Source: Squalus acanthias (taxonomy: Eukaryota). From it: DNA of 64,000 bases. Below, in pieces: positions 1-9,822 of this stretch. The stretch lies in NCBI GenBank assembly GCA_030390025.1, contig CM059432.1:38194001-38258000 (forward strand). The letters are read 5' to 3'. Every line of letters starts with the position of its first letter. The first letter of the stretch is position 1. The notes under the pieces were generated by a model. It ran no database searches, was not told the origin of the DNA, and worked only from the letters and a program-made list of their open reading frames with translations. A program made the position numbers and the translations under genes.

Positions 1-1937
1 CACAATGGTACACCCTGTTAAGGTGTTTTAATTTACACTTTGGAAAGAAACACAGAAAATTAAGAAACATATGCCTTCGTAAAAATGACATCAAATGAAA
101 CACAGGAGACATGATTCTGTGTTACAACCAGCTGAGGTAACTAAGAATTACATAGATCACCCTAGTTGAGGTGTTTTAATTTACACGTCGTAAAAAGACA
201 CAAACAGAAGACCTTGGTAAAAATGACATCAAATAGATGCACCTGCTGTTACATCATTTTTATGGTGAGCTTCGAACACCTAGGGTAGAGACATAGGGGT
301 AAAAATTCAGTTGGTTGCGCCTCCTGTTAGCGCCTTAAGAGGGCGCTAATGGGGCGCAAAGCCGCTAACGCCCGGGCGCAGCGATTTTTGCGCCGCTCGG
401 GAACTTAACTAGAGATTGTGCGGCGGCGCTAAACTTTACCGCTGCGACCACCTGCACGCGCAGATTGTGACGTCATTCCATGGTGCAACGCCCTTGTGGC
501 GCCCCGGAGCGTAAATTGAGTGGCGCCCCCTGCCTTACCGCCTGGCGCATCCAACGACCAGAAGACTGGAACGCTATCAATCGCTGTGGGGCTGGGGGGG
601 GGGGCGCTATTTAAAGGGGGCCTCTTCCTGTCTTTTATTGTTGGTGGCATTTTTGAACTACGCATTCTGAGAGAGAGAGGGAGAGACTTCTGGAGAGATT
701 CAACGTTGTGTGAAGGAGTTTTGGGGACTGAGCAGCACTTTGCAGGTTCATTTTGATTTGCCATTCCTTGTATCGATTTAGCAGAGACTGTGGGAGCTGC
801 ACTCTGAGCTCTTTGCCTGGTACTCTCCATTGTTCTTTCCAGCACATTTGATGTGCAAGTCTCTCCAGGCCGAGATTCAAGGCTGCAATGAACAGGATGT
901 GGATGGAAAGCAAGATTAACCATCCCCTTTAAGAACTGGCCCGTGCCATTGTGTGTGTGTTCCATTGCTGACTGACATTACATGAGCTTCGCCAGCGCTC
1001 TGAGTTGGCGCCTCACTCCTTGGCCTTTGCGCCTTAAGACAGGTGTGCAGCGCCTGATTTAGCGCTCCACTCACCTCCCGGGGCGGTAAAAGTGAAGTTT
1101 CCAGTCAGTGCCGATAATTAGCGCCAGGCGCTAATATTTGCGCCCCAAATGGGGCGCGACCTAATTTTTCCCCCATAATTCTTAATGCTACCAGCTGATC
1201 TGACTGTAAGAATAGCAGGGGTCAGCAGAAAAATGACTAGAGATAATTAGTTTACATCAGCAGAAAACTTCAAAGGAAATACCACTGAAAAAGGATATAA
1301 ATATTGAACTTTCAAATGGGATGATAGTCTCGCTGTAAAGGGGCAAAGCGATTCTCAGCTTCAGAGGCAAGCTCTGTAAGTCTACAACTCTTTGTATCTC
1401 AGGGATCAAGGTATTGTACTGTATTTGATTTTGGTGGATATTCTGGAATAAACTAAGAACTGTAAAACTAGCGAAGTTAAGATTTGAGAATAAGAATCTC
1501 TGCTAATAGAATTGTAAGCTTTTTGTATTTGGAACTGTTAATGTTGCGATTGAAACACCTACTGTAATTACATGTCGGTTCTTTAATAAATCTATATATT
1601 TTTAGAATTATCTCACATAATACTTCTGTATCAAACTCGCGAACTCAATCTCTGTACGCTCCTTGGTGAGGAGTTGCAGAATTCTGGGGGAGTTATCCAG
1701 ACCCTCATAATATCTGGAACGTTACAGTCTAGCTAAACTTATTAAAAGTGCTATCTGGAGGACGGTAACATCTTCAGGTTGTTCCTTTCCTTTAGGGAGA
1801 GATAATCTGAACCCTTAGACCCAATTAAGGGTCTTTAGGATTCGGATACCTCAAACATTAGTTGAAAGTGAACATCTGGGGAATACACCTGATCTTGGGT
1901 AGCTCTAAATGGACTAGGACTAGTAATTATCCCTTCA
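1..1937 (+). repeat. 5' LTR of foamy-like element (truncated by window edge; interrupted by Harbinger MITE at 296-1174)
   Basis: Colinear with 4885-5919 apart from the insertion; ends ...CCCTTCA just before the PBS. Confidence 0.9.
296..1174. mobile_element. Non-autonomous Harbinger/PIF element (MITE-like)
   Basis: TIRs GGGGTAAAAATT / AATTTTTCCCCC, 3-bp TSD ATA, empty site AGAGACATAATTC visible in the 3' LTR, second copy at 19235-20126. Confidence 0.9.
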
Positions 1938-1939
1938 GT

Positions 1940-1953
1940 TGGCGCCCAACGTG
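1940..1953 (+). promoter_or_regulatory. Primer binding site, tRNA-Lys(1,2) type
   Basis: TGGCGCCCAACGTG, 2 nt after the LTR end; matches the first 14 nt of the foamy-virus PBS TGGCGCCCAACGTGGGGC. Confidence 0.9.
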
Positions 1954-2200
1954 TGTGTTAATGAGTTGATACCGAACCTATACTTATATTTATATCTATA
2001 TCCATCTTGTAGATTGTTAAGTATAGAAGGAGTGTTTTACTGACAGTGGTACTAAGATCCAGATTTAAGTCTCTAGAGATGACAAGTCCCTGATCAGGCC
2101 TTGTAGAACTTAAATCAGAACTCCCTCAATATACCATTGAGGTCTAGAAATTTCTTATAAAGTTCATATTAAACCCTAACTTAGGTTAGGTCCTGACAAA

Positions 2201-4164
2201 ATGGCAAACCCTGTAGGAATTGGCCAAGTCTTTTTATTAGGAATTTCAAACGATTGCTTTATTAGGGGAAATAATCCTATCCCGATACCTCCACAAGACC
2301 AAGTAATAATTTTTGATGGCTCGTCAATGACGATTAAAAAAGGGGCATCCCAACAATCCTCAGCTGGGATAGGGATAGTAGTAGGGACTTTTCAAGATTC
2401 GTATTCTTTTTATCCAGAAGAATTACTGTCCATACCCCTTGGCCATAAGACAGCGCAATATGCTGAAGCCGCAGCATTACGGTATGCTTTAGAAAAGGCA
2501 GACCCTATTAAACCCATACTAATCTGTATGGATAGTGGCTACTGTAAAAGAGGATATAACCAAGATTTAGTTTTCTGGTAACAAACAAATTTTTACCAAT
2601 CATAAGGGTAAACCCATAAAACATATGTCATTGTGGGAAGACATTCTCCATTCGAGAATGGAGAAACAGAATTGTCAGGTGATTCATGTAAACGGGCATA
2701 CCACTGGGACAGTACACTCAAAAGGAAACAGTCTTGCAGACGAACAAGCAAAACGTTCAGGTCTGCATGACACCCCCTCGAGAGGGGCCTGTCAATATTA
2801 GTGTAATCACTAGGGCAGAACGGGCAGCTAAACAGGATGAGGAACTGATTCAGCTAATGGACCCAACAAAAGAGAATCCACCAGGATATCCATCAAAGTA
2901 CTTTTACTCAGAAACCCCTACGGGTATTGTGCTAGTTAAGTTGCCCAAGGGAAACTGAGAAGTACCCCCGAGACACAAACAAGAACAGCTTGTAAAAGAA
3001 GCACACGAGGGCATAGGTCAAGCACATTGTGGTGCCAGAACAACATTCTGCAAATTGACCCCCTTATATTGGTGGCCAGGCATGCTTAAGGCCTGTAAAA
3101 CATACGTGGCAAATTATGAGCCATGCTATTTAACCAATAAGTCATCACTAATTAAGCCACCACCATTGGCTCCTGTGAAAGCTGATGAGCCAATGGGAAA
3201 ATTATTTATTGACTTTATTGGACCACTTCCCCCGTCTTTGGGATACAGACATGTTCTTGTTTGTGTAGATGGATGCACTTCCTTCTGCTGGCTGGTCCCC
3301 ACAAAAACTGTATCAGAAAACGCACTCGCCAATGCTATTACTGACATAATTTCTGTAGCTGGTGCACCCAAAATCTTACACTCCGATCAAGGCGGAGCCT
3401 TTGTCTCCAAGGTCTTCAAAGACTACTGCGAACAAAGGGGGATTGGGTTAGAGCACAGCACGCCACATCATCCGCAATCAGCGGGGCTGGTGAAACGTAA
3501 AAACCAGGAAGTAAAAAAGCTATTGGTCAAACTGTTGAGAATCAGGGGAACTAAGTGAACCACCATCATTCCGGAGTTGCATTTATCACTTAATAATGTG
3601 CCCGCATCTGCATCAGGGACAGTGTCCCCTAAAACTCCATATTATCTGATGTATGGGGTTGAGATGCATACACCGTTTATTCATAGTTCTTTTATTGCCT
3701 CTACACTCTCAGATTCCTTGACCCGACAGCGACAGTTAGATTTAAAAAAAGAAGTAACAGAGGAGATTCATCAAATTGATCAGAGGATAAGGGAGGCAAA
3801 TAGGCAGAAAAAATTGACAAACAAAGCATGGCAACCCCTAGCAGGAGAATGGGTACAGGAAAAGAAGTTCGAGCAAAAACCTGGTTTAAGACCGAAGTGG
3901 AAAAAACCTGTTCAAATACATTCTGTTACTAACGAAAGTACAGTTAAAATACATATTAATCAGCTGAATGGCAAGCATATTCTTAAAACTGTCTCCATAG
4001 ACAATCTCAAAAGATGTCCTGTGGGATACCGAAATGAAAGAACAATACAAGGTGCAGTCGTACACTGTCTTTCAAGACCCAGCTTGGAGCACGACACAGG
4101 AAATGGATGCGATCGAACTACTGATGCCGGTCAGTCAGACGGTGTCGCCGACTCCTCCAGATGA
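2201..4164 (+). pseudogene. pol: Foamy-virus pol remnant: RNase H and integrase (frameshifts and stops)
   Basis: RNase H motifs DGSS, SIPLGHKTAQYAEAAA, KGKPIKHMSLW and GNSLAD; integrase motifs GYPSKY, YWWPGM, FIDFIGPLPPSLGY, LHSDQGGAF, STPHHPQSAG, LRPKWKKP and TVSIDNLK all parallel prototype foamy virus Pol; catalytic Glu appears mutated (VKRKN). Confidence 0.9.
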
Positions 4165-4360
4165 TGCTTGGCAACGCCTCAGGAATTGGATTCGCGAAAA
4201 GCCACAACCGAAACAAGGAAAGATCAACGAGTTACTTCAACGAAGGAGGAAAACACCGCGGATGAAGAAGGAATCAACTGAGCGCCTGGCAAGGCCTTTA
4301 CGAAAACAAGAATCTGTCCACACGCTGGATCGAAGGAACAGCGTGTCAAGCTTCAGCTAG
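4034..4360 (+). pseudogene. ORF overlapping the end of pol at the foamy env-start position (possible env leader or accessory remnant)
   Basis: ATG-initiated 108-aa ORF overlapping the integrase tail; support is positional only. Confidence 0.35.
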
Positions 4361-4667
4361 TTCCAAATGACGTCTCCTTCACTCGTATGAATAACTCACC
4401 TCTACGGAACATACATCTGCTGATTGGACATTCTAAGTACATGTTGTTTCGCTAATTGCATGACAATGTACCTATCATCCTTTTAAATTGTGTTCAATTT
4501 AAAATAAGGCAAAACATTGTCCTAGGATGACTTAAAAGGAATTTTCATGTAGCACATGATTAGGCTCTTGTGAATCTCGTGAAATTAATGTGCTATTGTA
4601 ACCTTATTAGTAACATTGACCAAACTCTGTCTTGATGCTCGAGTTCATTTTTTGATCAAGAGGGGTG

Positions 4668-5919
4668 TGTGAAGGAATAAGCCATATTCAGAAAAATACT
4701 CCATTCTTTGAAAGAATTCTAGCCTTATTAAAACATGACATACTGGGTTTGGAAATCTGAAGGCCTAACACTGGAGAAGCTGTAGCAGCATTCAGGCTAT
4801 TGAGATAAGATGAAGTTGTTGACACTGAATCAATAACCTTATTGAAACAGGAGGTTGGAGGTTCCTGATAGTCTGAAGCTTTGGAAAGGTGTTTTAATTT
4901 ACACTTCGGAAAGAAACACAGAAAATTAAGAAACATATGCCTTCATAAAAATGACATCAAATGAAACACAGGAGACACGATTCTGTGTTACAACCAGCTG
5001 AGGTAACTAAGAATTGCATAGATCACCCTAGTTGAGGTGTTTTAATTTACACGTCATAAAAAGACACAAACAGAAGACTTTGGTAAAAATGACATCAAAT
5101 AGATGCACCTGCTGTTACATCGTTTATGGTGAGCTTCGAACACCTAGGGTAGAGACATAATTCTTAATGCTATCCAGCTGATCTGACTGTAAGAATAGCA
5201 GGGGTCAGCAGAAAAATGACTAGAGATAATTAGCTTACATCAGCAGAAAACTTCAAAGGAAATACCACTGAAAAAGGATATAAATATTGAACTTTCAAAT
5301 GGGATGATAGTCTCGCTGTAAAGGGGCAAAGCGATTCTCAGCTTCAGAGGCAAGCTCTGTAAGTCTACAACTCTTTGTATCTCAGGGATCAAGGTATTGT
5401 ACTGTATTTGATTTTGGTGGATATTCTGGAATAAACTAAGAACTGTAAAACTAGCGAAGTTAAGGTTTGAGAATAAGGATCTCTGATAATAGAATTGTAA
5501 GCTTTTTGTATTTGGAACTGTTAATGTTGCGATTGAAACACCTACTGTAATTACATGTCGGTTCTTTAATGAATCTATATATTTTTAGAATTATCTCACA
5601 TAATACTTCTGTATCAAACTCGCGAACTCAATCTCTGTACGCTCCTTGGTGAGGAGTTGCAGAATTCTGGGGGAGTTATCCGGACCCTCATAATATCTGG
5701 AACGTTACAGTCTAGCTAAACTTATTAAAAGTGCTATCTGGAGGACAGTATCATCTTCAGGTTGTTCCTTTCCTTTAGGGAGAGATAGCTGGACCTTTAG
5801 ACCCAATTAAGCGTCTTTAGGATTCAGATACCTCAAACTTTAGTTGAAAGTGAACGTCTGGGGAATACGCCTGATCTGGGGTAGCCATAAAGGGGCTAGG
5901 ACTAGTAATTATCCCTTCA
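4668..5919 (+). repeat. 3' LTR of foamy-like element
   Basis: TGTGAAGG...CCCTTCA, preceded by PPT; TATA-like TATAAATA ~5279-5286; duplicated U3 blocks containing AAAAATGACATCAAAT. Confidence 0.92.
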
Positions 5920-6900
5920 AGCCCTCCTCCCCATTTACTAGTTTAAAGTCCTTGTGACTGCCCTATTTATCCTTTCTGCTAGAACCCTGGTCCCAGACCG
6001 GTTCAGGTGGAGCCCGTTCCAATGGTACAGTTCCTTCCTGTCCCAATACTGGTGTCAGTGCCCCATGAAATGGAATCCCTCTTTCCCACACTATTCCTTT
6101 AGCCACGTGTTCGCTTCCCTAATCATCTTATCCCTACGACAATTTACATGTGGCTCAGGTAATAATCCAGAGATTATAACCCTTGAGGTCCTGTTCTTTA
6201 ATTTAGCTCCTAGATCCTGGTACTCCCCAAACAGGACCTCTTGTCTACTCTTCCCTATGTTGTTGGTCCCAACATGGACCACAACGACTGGATCCTCTCC
6301 CTCCCCCTCCCATATCCTTTCAAGCCAGTTTGAGATGTCCCTCACCCTGCCACTAAGTAGGCAACATACCATGTGGGACTCTCAATCCTGCTTACAAAGG
6401 ATGCCACCTGTCCGCCTAATTATAGAATCCCCTACAATGACCACATTACGCTTCCTCTCCTCATCCTCATCCTCCTCCCCCCTTAGGACAGCCTCCTGCT
6501 CCAAAGTGCCATGGCCCGCATTCTGGCTGTCCTTCCGACAGTCTTTATCTTTATCCTCACAGATAGCAAGTACATTGTACCTGTTGGATAGGATCAGTTT
6601 CTGTGGATCCTCGTTCCCTTTCTTACCTGGGTTCCCCTTACTCTGCACACTATCAGTCACACCAACCCCATTCTGATCCTGCACCTCTCTACGAGGTGTG
6701 ACCAAAGTCTGGAGCAAACTGTCCAGATACTCCTCCCCCTCCCTTATGAGTCGGAGTGCCTCCAACTCGCACTCCAACTCAATGACTCTGAGCCGGAGAG
6801 ATTTGAGACGGAGACATCTCCTGCAGGCGTGTTCGCTCGGGACAAACTCCCACATACTGCAGTCCAGACACACAACTGCCCTGCCATATCTTAGTCTAAC
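5920..6900 (-). mobile_element. CR1 LINE ORF1 remnant (Cys finger, coiled coil, SGNH esterase); host site of the foamy element
   Basis: CLDCSMWEF..CRRC, VVIVGDSIIR, VVVHVGTNNIG, VIISGLLP. Confidence 0.85.
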
Positions 6901-7599
6901 CTTCTTTTATTTATTTAATTAGTTAAAATCTTTATTCAATGATTATTTATAGTTACATTAATTAGTTTATCTAGTTAAGTTTTTAATTTAATAAAGTACG
7001 TTATTGTTTCCCGCTCTTAGTTTAAACCATCATATGTATTTTTCACAATGAAATAAAGCTGTCAATCCTGCTTAGGTTTTAAAAATCAGAAGCTGCCTGC
7101 TGCAACAGACTGCCCCTCATGGTGTGGCAGCAACCCCAAATGATTAGCTTTCTTTTCTTCCTGTGATCAGATTTAACTCTTTCTAAAATCTAGATTGCCT
7201 GTAAATCTTCTCTCACTTGCTAAACAATAAAATGATAGACCCAAAGCTGTATGCCCATTAGCAACAGGGGATGTGACTGCCAAAACTCACTTTAGATTGA
7301 ACACTTGGTGCAGCATAAATGCCAGGATTGTTCTGTTTGGAAACGTTGCCTGCACCACTGTGGGCCCACCTTGGGTGAGCACCAGAACACAGAGGGCAGG
7401 TATTGTAGTGTAGTCCTGCTGCATCAACAGTCTGAAGGAGCTGCAGCTCCAGCAGACTTCTATTAATGCCCTATGTGCCCTTTTGTAAAGGGATTTGATT
7501 GCTAAATTCTGCCTGCGTTTTATCTTCCAGAGACTAGGCCAGGACCCAAGCCTGGACCCCAATCAAAGTGGCCCTAACTTCTGCTAGCCAGGAGACCAA

Positions 7600-9458: not shown

Positions 9459-9822
9459 ACGAGTCACAGGGGGAGAAATTCGGTATCGACCATTTTGGGG
9501 CGCTAACATCGGCCGGCCGTAAACTTTAGCGCCTGGCGCAAATTAGCACCTGCGACCACGAAATTCGTCTCCAGCGCCCCTGGAGGTGATTGGAGCGCTA
9601 AATCAAGCGCTACACACTTCTCTTAGGGCGCTAACGTCGGGAAACGGGGCACTACCTCAGTGTGCTACTCAAGCTCAGGCGATGTCAATCACCTTGTACT
9701 CAGACATACTGCCGCTTTCCAGTTCTTAAAGGGGAGGGTCCATCATGCTGTACAGCCTCACCCTGCTCATTGCTGCTTTTGACCTGGGCCTGCAATTCTT
9801 CAATTCTTCAACCAGCAATATC

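Follow-up and report, generated by a model that had tools for sequence, protein, structure and literature searches.

The window analysed here, a 64,000-nt stretch of the Squalus acanthias genome (assembly GCA_030390025.1, contig CM059432.1, positions 38,194,001 to 38,258,000 of the forward strand), opens with an endogenous foamy-type provirus that has kept its long terminal repeats (LTRs), the leader, the start of gag and the 3' part of pol. We found that this provirus belongs to an amplified, non-autonomous foamy-type family, the reality of which we regard as almost certain. The integrase-coding stretch of 3' pol has probably been kept in this family as a cis-acting RNA element, resembling the second cis-acting sequence (CAS-II) of foamy viruses. 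An earlier note, made from the sequence of the window, had proposed a non-autonomous element mobilised in trans; the many copies bear this out, although the element seems to have arisen stepwise from an already env-less lineage, and its form is one of several deleted subfamilies.

Copy number and independent insertions

The survey covered the source genome (3.7 Gb). Deletion A denotes the loss that joins gag to RNase H in the window element, and form A denotes the copies carrying it. A search with the junction region gave 40 scored matches, all spanning nearly its full length, 39 of them at other loci and at 93-96%; all 19 loci that were fetched are colinear with the window across the junction. 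The exact 24-nt motif of junction A has 38 matches, compared to 0 for the control. We also compiled a census of 95 copies, taken from the first 100 listed of 105 matches to a motif spanning the LTR and the primer-binding site (PBS); this selection is blind to internal structure and biased towards the LTR type of the window. Form A accounts for 24 of the 95 census copies, and env is present in none of them. Copy-number estimates by two rough overlap methods range from 100 to 190.

Both ends could be scored in 23 form A copies; an exact 4-bp target duplication is present in 17 of these, and 16 of the duplications are distinct. The junction spacing is identical in 36 of 43 fetched form A copies, shifted by 6 nt in four, of another length in one and unmatched in two, and two 5' gag variants near the junction occur in 42 of 42 A copies and in a minority of long copies. 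The deletion is not unique to this locus, nor does the integrase fall outside the spumaviruses; either finding would, according to the earlier note, have refuted its proposal. It should be noted that the A copies are not monophyletic in the star-like integrase tree, which is a point against our interpretation; interleaving with long copies is, however, expected from a burst, and also from recombination with co-packaged helper RNA. The same interleaving, as well as the 6-nt shift, would also fit copies made by segmental duplication, or a recurrent post-insertion deletion at a hot spot, rather than by retroviral copying. Distinct target duplications and junction-linked variants already speak against this explanation, the flanks differ between copies, and we consider it extremely improbable.

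The foamy-type family also includes candidate helpers. A search for the spumavirus protease family yielded 49 matches, and each of the 20 loci fetched has LTR or internal sequence in common with the window. Where both sides are covered, these loci typically contain an additional ~3.3 kb at window 2314-2316, which encodes foamy Gag, protease and reverse transcriptase (RT). The Gag begins with MANPVGIG, so that the earlier suggestion of these residues as the Gag N-terminus is confirmed in the long relatives. The foamy Env family was found at no fewer than six loci, which hold the ~3.2 kb of env absent after window 4310 and are 86-94% identical to the window family in gag and pol; the env junction is contiguous in 78 of 79 env-less copies covering both sides. 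The relatives thus fall into three tiers, i.e., env-bearing, env-less gag-pol and gag-pol-deleted copies, and the likely order is from an env-bearing virus to an env-less gag-pol element and then to the deleted forms. At two env-bearing loci, L043-L044 (C6:123.32 Mb) and L041-L042 (C20:14.48 Mb), a younger LTR of the env-less type is nested as a later insertion. A count of long copies based on 135 motif matches was dropped because form B, a second deleted form described below, has the same motif.

The median LTR-LTR divergence of 26 form A copies is 3.8% and that of 12 RT-intact copies is 3.7%; deleted and gag-pol copies are equal in LTR age. Since the A copies have no capsid or RT and cannot copy themselves, their spread implies mobilisation in trans, and the helpers were probably the equally old env-less gag-pol relatives. 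The family has the features of a non-autonomous LTR element: a common deletion at many independent insertions, loss of capsid and RT, and a contemporary helper with the same LTR. Helper Gag and Pol would package, reverse transcribe and integrate the deleted RNA, and this copying would likely take place within germ-line cells, using proteins of the env-less gag-pol relatives.

Some copies have unusual ends. In L072, L090, L120, L122 and L124 the internal region jumps directly into the end part of an LTR, at a point that is not common to the copies; a proper 4-bp duplication is present in L122. Copy L118 contains, near 1500-1535, the LTR-end motif followed by the full 18-nt PBS and further tRNA-complementary bases, in place of the viral leader. 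Copying that ran beyond the end of the primer may have produced it, or a tRNA gene may have been joined there by chance. The tRNA-Lys motif has 211 matches, including large clusters and a 1.8-kb tandem array at C21 9.9-11.0 Mb and C26 39-44 Mb; only two matches, outside these clusters, were confirmed as tRNA genes.

Foamy-virus identity

The best match of the window integrase in the PDB is the integrase of prototype foamy virus (PFV; E 3e-54), and the match to Ty3 has E 1.5e-10. An IQ-TREE analysis of 91 integrase cores placed the window, seven mammalian foamy viruses and the divergent contig P0009 in one clade (SH-aLRT, the Shimodaira-Hasegawa-like approximate likelihood-ratio support, 99), in which the window is sister to the mammalian foamy rows with an SH-aLRT of only 85; this tree is a quick search, with rows chosen by alignment length and comprising no orthoretrovirus or named fish foamy endogenous retrovirus (ERV). 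The parent has the foamy Gag central domain (PF20672, E 5e-13), the A9 protease (PF03539, E 2e-7) and foamy Env (PF03408, E 1e-21). The foamy affinity proposed earlier is therefore upheld by the structure match, by the Gag and protease families and by the tree. A homolog search that used the short integrase among longer proteins gave no match.

Three hallmarks of the foamy lineage are present: a 4-bp target duplication, which is exact in 31 of 39 scorable copies of the family, a tRNA-Lys PBS and a GGGTG border where the polypurine tract (PPT) meets the LTR, a motif described for foamy-type ERVs (PMC5210030). The parts listed in the earlier note (LTRs, Lys PBS, leader, ATG at 2201, RNase H, integrase, PPT) were all recovered. 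Its statement that most of gag, protease, RT, env and accessory genes are missing stands for the first four; in one env-bearing copy only ~0.5 kb separates the end of env from the LTR, and large accessory genes, such as the tas/bet genes of strict (mammalian) Spumaretrovirinae, may never have existed in the env-bearing parent.

Shared deletions and the spared 3' block

Eight deletions are common to several loci: A, B, C, D, E (in gag) and F, together with a small protease deletion and a small RNase H deletion, with census counts of 24, 6, 18, 6, 10, 3, 7 and 22, respectively; positions are given on a ruler, the natural copy L021, on which the census copies were mapped. Deletion A removes 3,330 nt between gag and RNase H in frame. 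Deletion B (3,366 nt; 40 exact matches, and a seventh census copy recognised by its junction) produced a second minimal form, which its own breakpoints indicate to be independent of A. Deletions C, D and F are out of frame, and the RNase H deletion is 111 nt long. A splicing origin of junction A was ruled out, as it has no GT-AG ends. The junction lies at a TGA microhomology, itself part of an imperfect 18-nt repeat, the other shared junctions are also located at short repeats, and deletion A would have arisen once, through a template jump of the reverse transcriptase at such a repeat. Contigs from sequencing runs, whose run types are guessed and which show presence only, contain junction B in organisms A, E and F and junctions C and E in organisms A and F; in organism A, one contig also spans junction A.

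In the census, 35 copies fall short of the 3' end and break at unshared points. Among the 60 complete copies, the leader is covered by all 60 (its first 20 nt being guaranteed by sample selection), the gag-RT region by 19-36, and the sequence from ruler 3601, the start of RNase H, onward by 56-60. None of the eight shared deletions passes ruler 4011 and none touches the leader; the leader and the block from integrase to PPT are thus spared by every amplified deletion. The earlier note described the RNase H-integrase region as retained, which holds for integrase across independent deletions and fails for part of RNase H, where the 111-nt loss was amplified. Four large deletions terminate within 100 nt of one another (ruler 3600-3697). 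Compared to a null model of uniform placement, the absence of shared deletions has p 0.004 for ruler 4012-5700 and p 0.012 for the integrase core. A null for ruler 3699-5412 (p 0.0008) was discarded because the RNase H deletion falls within that span. The edge of the env deletion was also dropped as evidence of a cis element: it starts ~30 nt past the pol stop, and the need of the helper for Pol explains it.

The C/D lineage is informative with respect to protein function. Of its 21 copies, 16 share a +1 frameshift located before the first catalytic Asp, the region is still kept, and the lineage-specific changes comprise 21 nonsynonymous (N) and 2 synonymous (S) substitutions; therefore, the block is not kept for its protein there. 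Together, these deletion patterns make it probable that the integrase-coding stretch was kept as a cis RNA element, comparable to foamy CAS-II.

Correspondence with foamy CAS-I and CAS-II

PFV vectors are described as requiring CAS-I (nt 1-645) and CAS-II (nt 3869-5884) (PMC3196705); CAS-I takes in ~200 nt of gag (PMC3196705, PMC3185757), and CAS-II contains packaging elements, the Pol encapsidation sequence and the central PPT (PMC5035957, PMC7828637). Foamy CAS-II is defined as 3' pol RNA needed in cis for packaging, Pol encapsidation or the activation of protease. PFV Pol residue 599 aligns to the junction and residue 752 to ruler 4194. The equivalent of CAS-II, which we take to lie at about ruler 3410-5520 given our assumed start of PFV pol, is mostly kept by form A. 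An 11-nt purine run (window 3857-3867) aligns with the VQERV motif of PFV integrase, presumably the site of the central PPT in PFV; the run is not a copy of the 3' PPT. The match to the CAS regions is approximate, and we infer functional identity from the deletion patterns. Like foamy CAS-II, the kept 3' block would act in packaging the genome, in central priming of the plus strand, or in both.

Several observations weigh against a cis-acting role. The protected boundary was chosen post hoc, and the eight events are partly dependent, as D nests in C. Deletions A, B, C and D cut ~170-290 nt into the 5' end of the CAS-II-equivalent span, the amplified 111-nt RNase H deletion lies inside it, and a perfect internal copy of the 3' PPT was not found, the aligned site being the purine run only. 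Shared deletions touch the 3' block in 0 of 8 cases versus 8 of 19 for private deletions, a difference that is not significant (p 0.06), and the private count is inflated because A and B copies expose mostly 3' sequence.

These observations could also be accommodated if the elements were mobilised in trans and 3' pol was spared without any cis signal, either because template jumps were commoner in the 5' half or through founder chance. The location of every junction at short repeats and the small, partly nested set of events agree with this explanation, as does the weakness of the comparison of shared with private deletions. However, the uniform-placement null disfavours it, private deletions do hit the 3' block (one of them, in a single copy, removes 2,067 nt), and the ends of four large deletions are clustered. 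We therefore consider sparing without a signal unlikely, and retention as a cis RNA element remains our preferred interpretation.

Selection on the proteins

Frequencies of N and S variants were compared between shared and private changes; for RNase H-integrase, the tests covered 570 codons counted from the RNase H Asp, and pol extends ~80 codons further. In long copies, shared variants (N,S 32,41) differ from private variants (402,120) in RNase H-integrase (p 3e-8), and in protease-RT, where one modal stop was left in the frame, the values are 14,19 versus 362,158 (p 0.002). Long env-less copies are under purifying selection on pol, as helpers should be. For gag, constraint on the shared variants of full copies does not reach significance (p 0.24), which does not favour their role as helpers.

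The evidence for integrase constraint in form A is mixed. Variants found in at least three A copies seem to be under constraint (N,S 38,28, p 0.0009), a result at odds with retention as RNA, whereas A-specific shared variants, which are few and partly homoplasy, look neutral (60,13 versus 388,93 for private variants, p 0.87). No protein-level constraint specific to the integrase of the deleted lineages was detectable in the N/S ratios of lineage-specific variants. It is also awkward for an RNA-based interpretation that deletions A and B are both in frame, for which the chance is 1 in 9, and both retain the first RNase H Asp. Forms A and B may have kept RNase H-integrase for a Gag(1-38)-RNase H-integrase fusion, or for an open frame evading nonsense-mediated decay. 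Besides the preserved frame and the constrained look of the shared variants, neither A nor B has a fixed frameshift, and a shared 2-nt deletion in 6 of 43 A copies is also found in long copies. Conversely, the A-specific variants look neutral, deletions C, D and F do not preserve the frame, and the C/D lineage was able to spread although its integrase frame was broken and its long tail not translated. On balance, a protein-based reason for retention is very unlikely, and we continue to favour the RNA.

Two further protein-level possibilities were considered. A 993-nt in-frame gag deletion with intact RT has TGG at the gag end in 5 of 5 copies and would make a short-Gag-Pol fusion; selection on this fusion could not be demonstrated. 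A division of labour, with E providing only Pol and C/D only Gag, showed no significant lineage-specific constraint, the changes being too few.

Gag-pol layout and readthrough

In long copies, the gag-end codon lies 87 nt in frame ahead of the protease Asp (12 of 12 matched). Counted by eye in the first 100 of 148 matches, this codon is TGA in 80, TGG in 15, TGC in 4 and TAA in 1; of two env-bearing copies covering the gag end, one has TGA and the other TGG. Long copies in which TGG or TGC replaces the gag TGA include L034 (4810-7665), L036, L038, L022, L030, L033, L074 and L088. No in-frame ATG between the gag-end codon and the protease Asp was found in any of four copies. For five of six folded copies, the prediction gives an 8-bp stem spanning +14 to +47 past the stop (z about -2, weak).

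This layout leads us to lean towards UGA readthrough as the way in which the parent made Gag-Pol; a splice supplying a pol ATG is a possible alternative. Gamma- and epsilonretroviruses make Gag-Pol via stop suppression. The contig P0009 (10,956 nt), divergent and basal in the foamy clade, encodes 1,687 aa in one open frame, with a Gag-like N-terminus and a full Pol, which may be a second hint of a fused Gag-Pol at the base of foamy viruses. The strict mammalian Spumaretrovirinae layout, i.e., spliced Pol with its own ATG in another frame, was not found in the shark family. A second frame, open for ~150 codons over 3' gag in most long copies (e.g., L034:6126-6581), has no Pfam match and may be a by-product of base composition.

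Known foamy viruses are described as expressing Pol from a spliced mRNA, hence the need for an RNA tether (PMC3705302). Gag-Pol readthrough would remove this need; therefore, the kept block is read as a packaging or plus-strand element and is probably not required to tether free Pol. The earlier note had recognised a CAS-like architecture in the retained leader/5' gag and 3' pol. That architecture is present, but a role of 3' pol in Pol incorporation is doubtful in a parent with gag-TGA-pol in one frame and no pol ATG.

Element at the window locus

The whole provirus lies on the plus strand and starts 222 nt upstream of window base 1, not at base 1 as first described. The window part of the 5' LTR covers 1-1937, and the target duplication AGCC precedes the LTR. 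An 880-nt insertion at 296-1175, resembling a miniature inverted-repeat transposable element (MITE), has imperfect terminal inverted repeats and a TA duplication; it is later and non-viral, and no strand was assigned to it. Relatives of this MITE-like element are found inverted at window 9469-9792 and within proviral copies L002, L007, L010 and L018. The PBS (1940-1953) matches the 3' end of tRNA-Lys(CTT) genes from the same genome at 14 of 18 nt. The leader (1938-2200) measures 261 nt before the ATG at 2201, followed by the first 38 codons of gag (MANPVGIG..., 2201-2316) and junction A (2314-2316).

The RNase H domain from the first catalytic Asp occupies 2314-2810, and the integrase coding region, the candidate cis RNA element, occupies 2811-4281 and is the core of the block lost in no amplified deletion. 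The end of pol at 4281 was set by comparison with relatives and overlaps the 5' remnant of env (4034-4343), which includes the env deletion junction and a remaining 35-nt mid-env piece. The 3' PPT with the GGGTG border is at 4658-4667 (AAGAGGGG followed by TG), the 3' LTR (1,252 nt) at 4668-5919, and the 3' copy of the AGCC duplication at 5920-5923. The two LTRs are 97.0% identical over 763 nt; in U3 they differ by 13 mismatches and 27 gap positions in 517.

Domains detected in the window element are RNase H, integrase H2C2, rve and SH3_11. The earlier reading of an ATG running in frame into RNase H is correct for the junction itself, but the frame is then broken, and frameshifts and premature stops disrupt RNase H-integrase; the window copy is dead. 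On the minus strand at 5942-6922, fragments of open reading frames (ORFs) adjoin the provirus and resemble ORF1 of CR1-type long interspersed elements, into or beside which the provirus was inserted. These fragments contain what we take to be SGNH-esterase-like motifs.

Discussion

The shark family resembles PFV and its replication-deficient vectors in the order of Lys PBS, leader with 5' gag, 3' pol, PPT and LTRs, as described in the available text on these vectors (PMC3196705, PMC5035957, PMC3705302, PMC3185757, PMC7828637). The integrase core is 46-48% identical to that of PFV, and the Gag central, A9 protease and Env families of the parent, as well as the 4-bp duplication, are shared. Unlike PFV vectors, the shark element is natural, endogenous and dead; of gag, only 115 nt remain in form A and 58 nt in form B, compared to about 200 reported for the vectors. 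Also unlike PFV, the family tolerates partial loss of RNase H, has no perfect central PPT copy, and its parent has gag-TGA-pol in frame with no pol ATG instead of the spliced pol mRNA described for PFV. Env-deficient PFV vectors retrotranspose in cells, under conditions called artificial in a review (PMC3185757).

The foamy-like ERVs described from fish, coelacanth, amphibians and elephant shark are reported with the same GGGTG border, Lys PBS and 4-nt duplications and with no Cys-His box; for AciFLERV and AliFLERV, it has been suggested that complementation may have occurred in trans (PMC5512871, PMC5210030, PMC3386198). As portrayed there, they are low-copy, env-bearing or fragmentary, unlike the amplified env-less shark family, and the available text of these accounts yielded no amplified env-less lineage, shared-deletion subfamily or readthrough layout. 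The class III ERV XtERV-S of Xenopus has, like the shark parent, gag-TGA-pol in one frame with predicted suppression and no Cys-His box; it differs in being ERV-L/S-like with a dUTPase and a class I env, and its authors call it not particularly foamy-like (PMC8278194), whereas the shark element groups with true foamy viruses. No non-autonomous foamy family or readthrough foamy ERV was found in titles and abstracts of the literature, of which most subscription journals were outside coverage.

Among other retroelements, MusD/ETn, IAP deletion forms, VL30, MaLR and ERV-L illustrate how elements that lost env went on to amplify, and how helpers copy partners with internal deletions. These elements are not foamy, unlike the shark family; to our knowledge, their packaging signals are mainly 5', and RNA of the integrase region is not required.

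Endogenous foamy viruses have been described as rare, and all that is known of their two-part packaging signal comes from deletions made in mammalian viruses in cell culture. In the shark, the germ line has in effect run the deletion experiment eight times, sparing a 2-kb 3' block, which provides a natural boundary. The family represents a foamy lineage turned retrotransposon, with parasitic derivatives. More tentatively, and on the doubtful side of even, the natural deletion map might indicate an ancient origin of the bipartite packaging signal of foamy viruses, before that of spliced Pol, such that a basal lineage with UGA readthrough already needed integrase-region RNA. The in-frame gag-TGA-pol layout bears on when foamy viruses adopted spliced Pol and on why CAS-II exists: if this scenario is true, CAS-II would at first have been a genome-packaging or plus-strand element, and Pol tethering would have been added in later foamy viruses.

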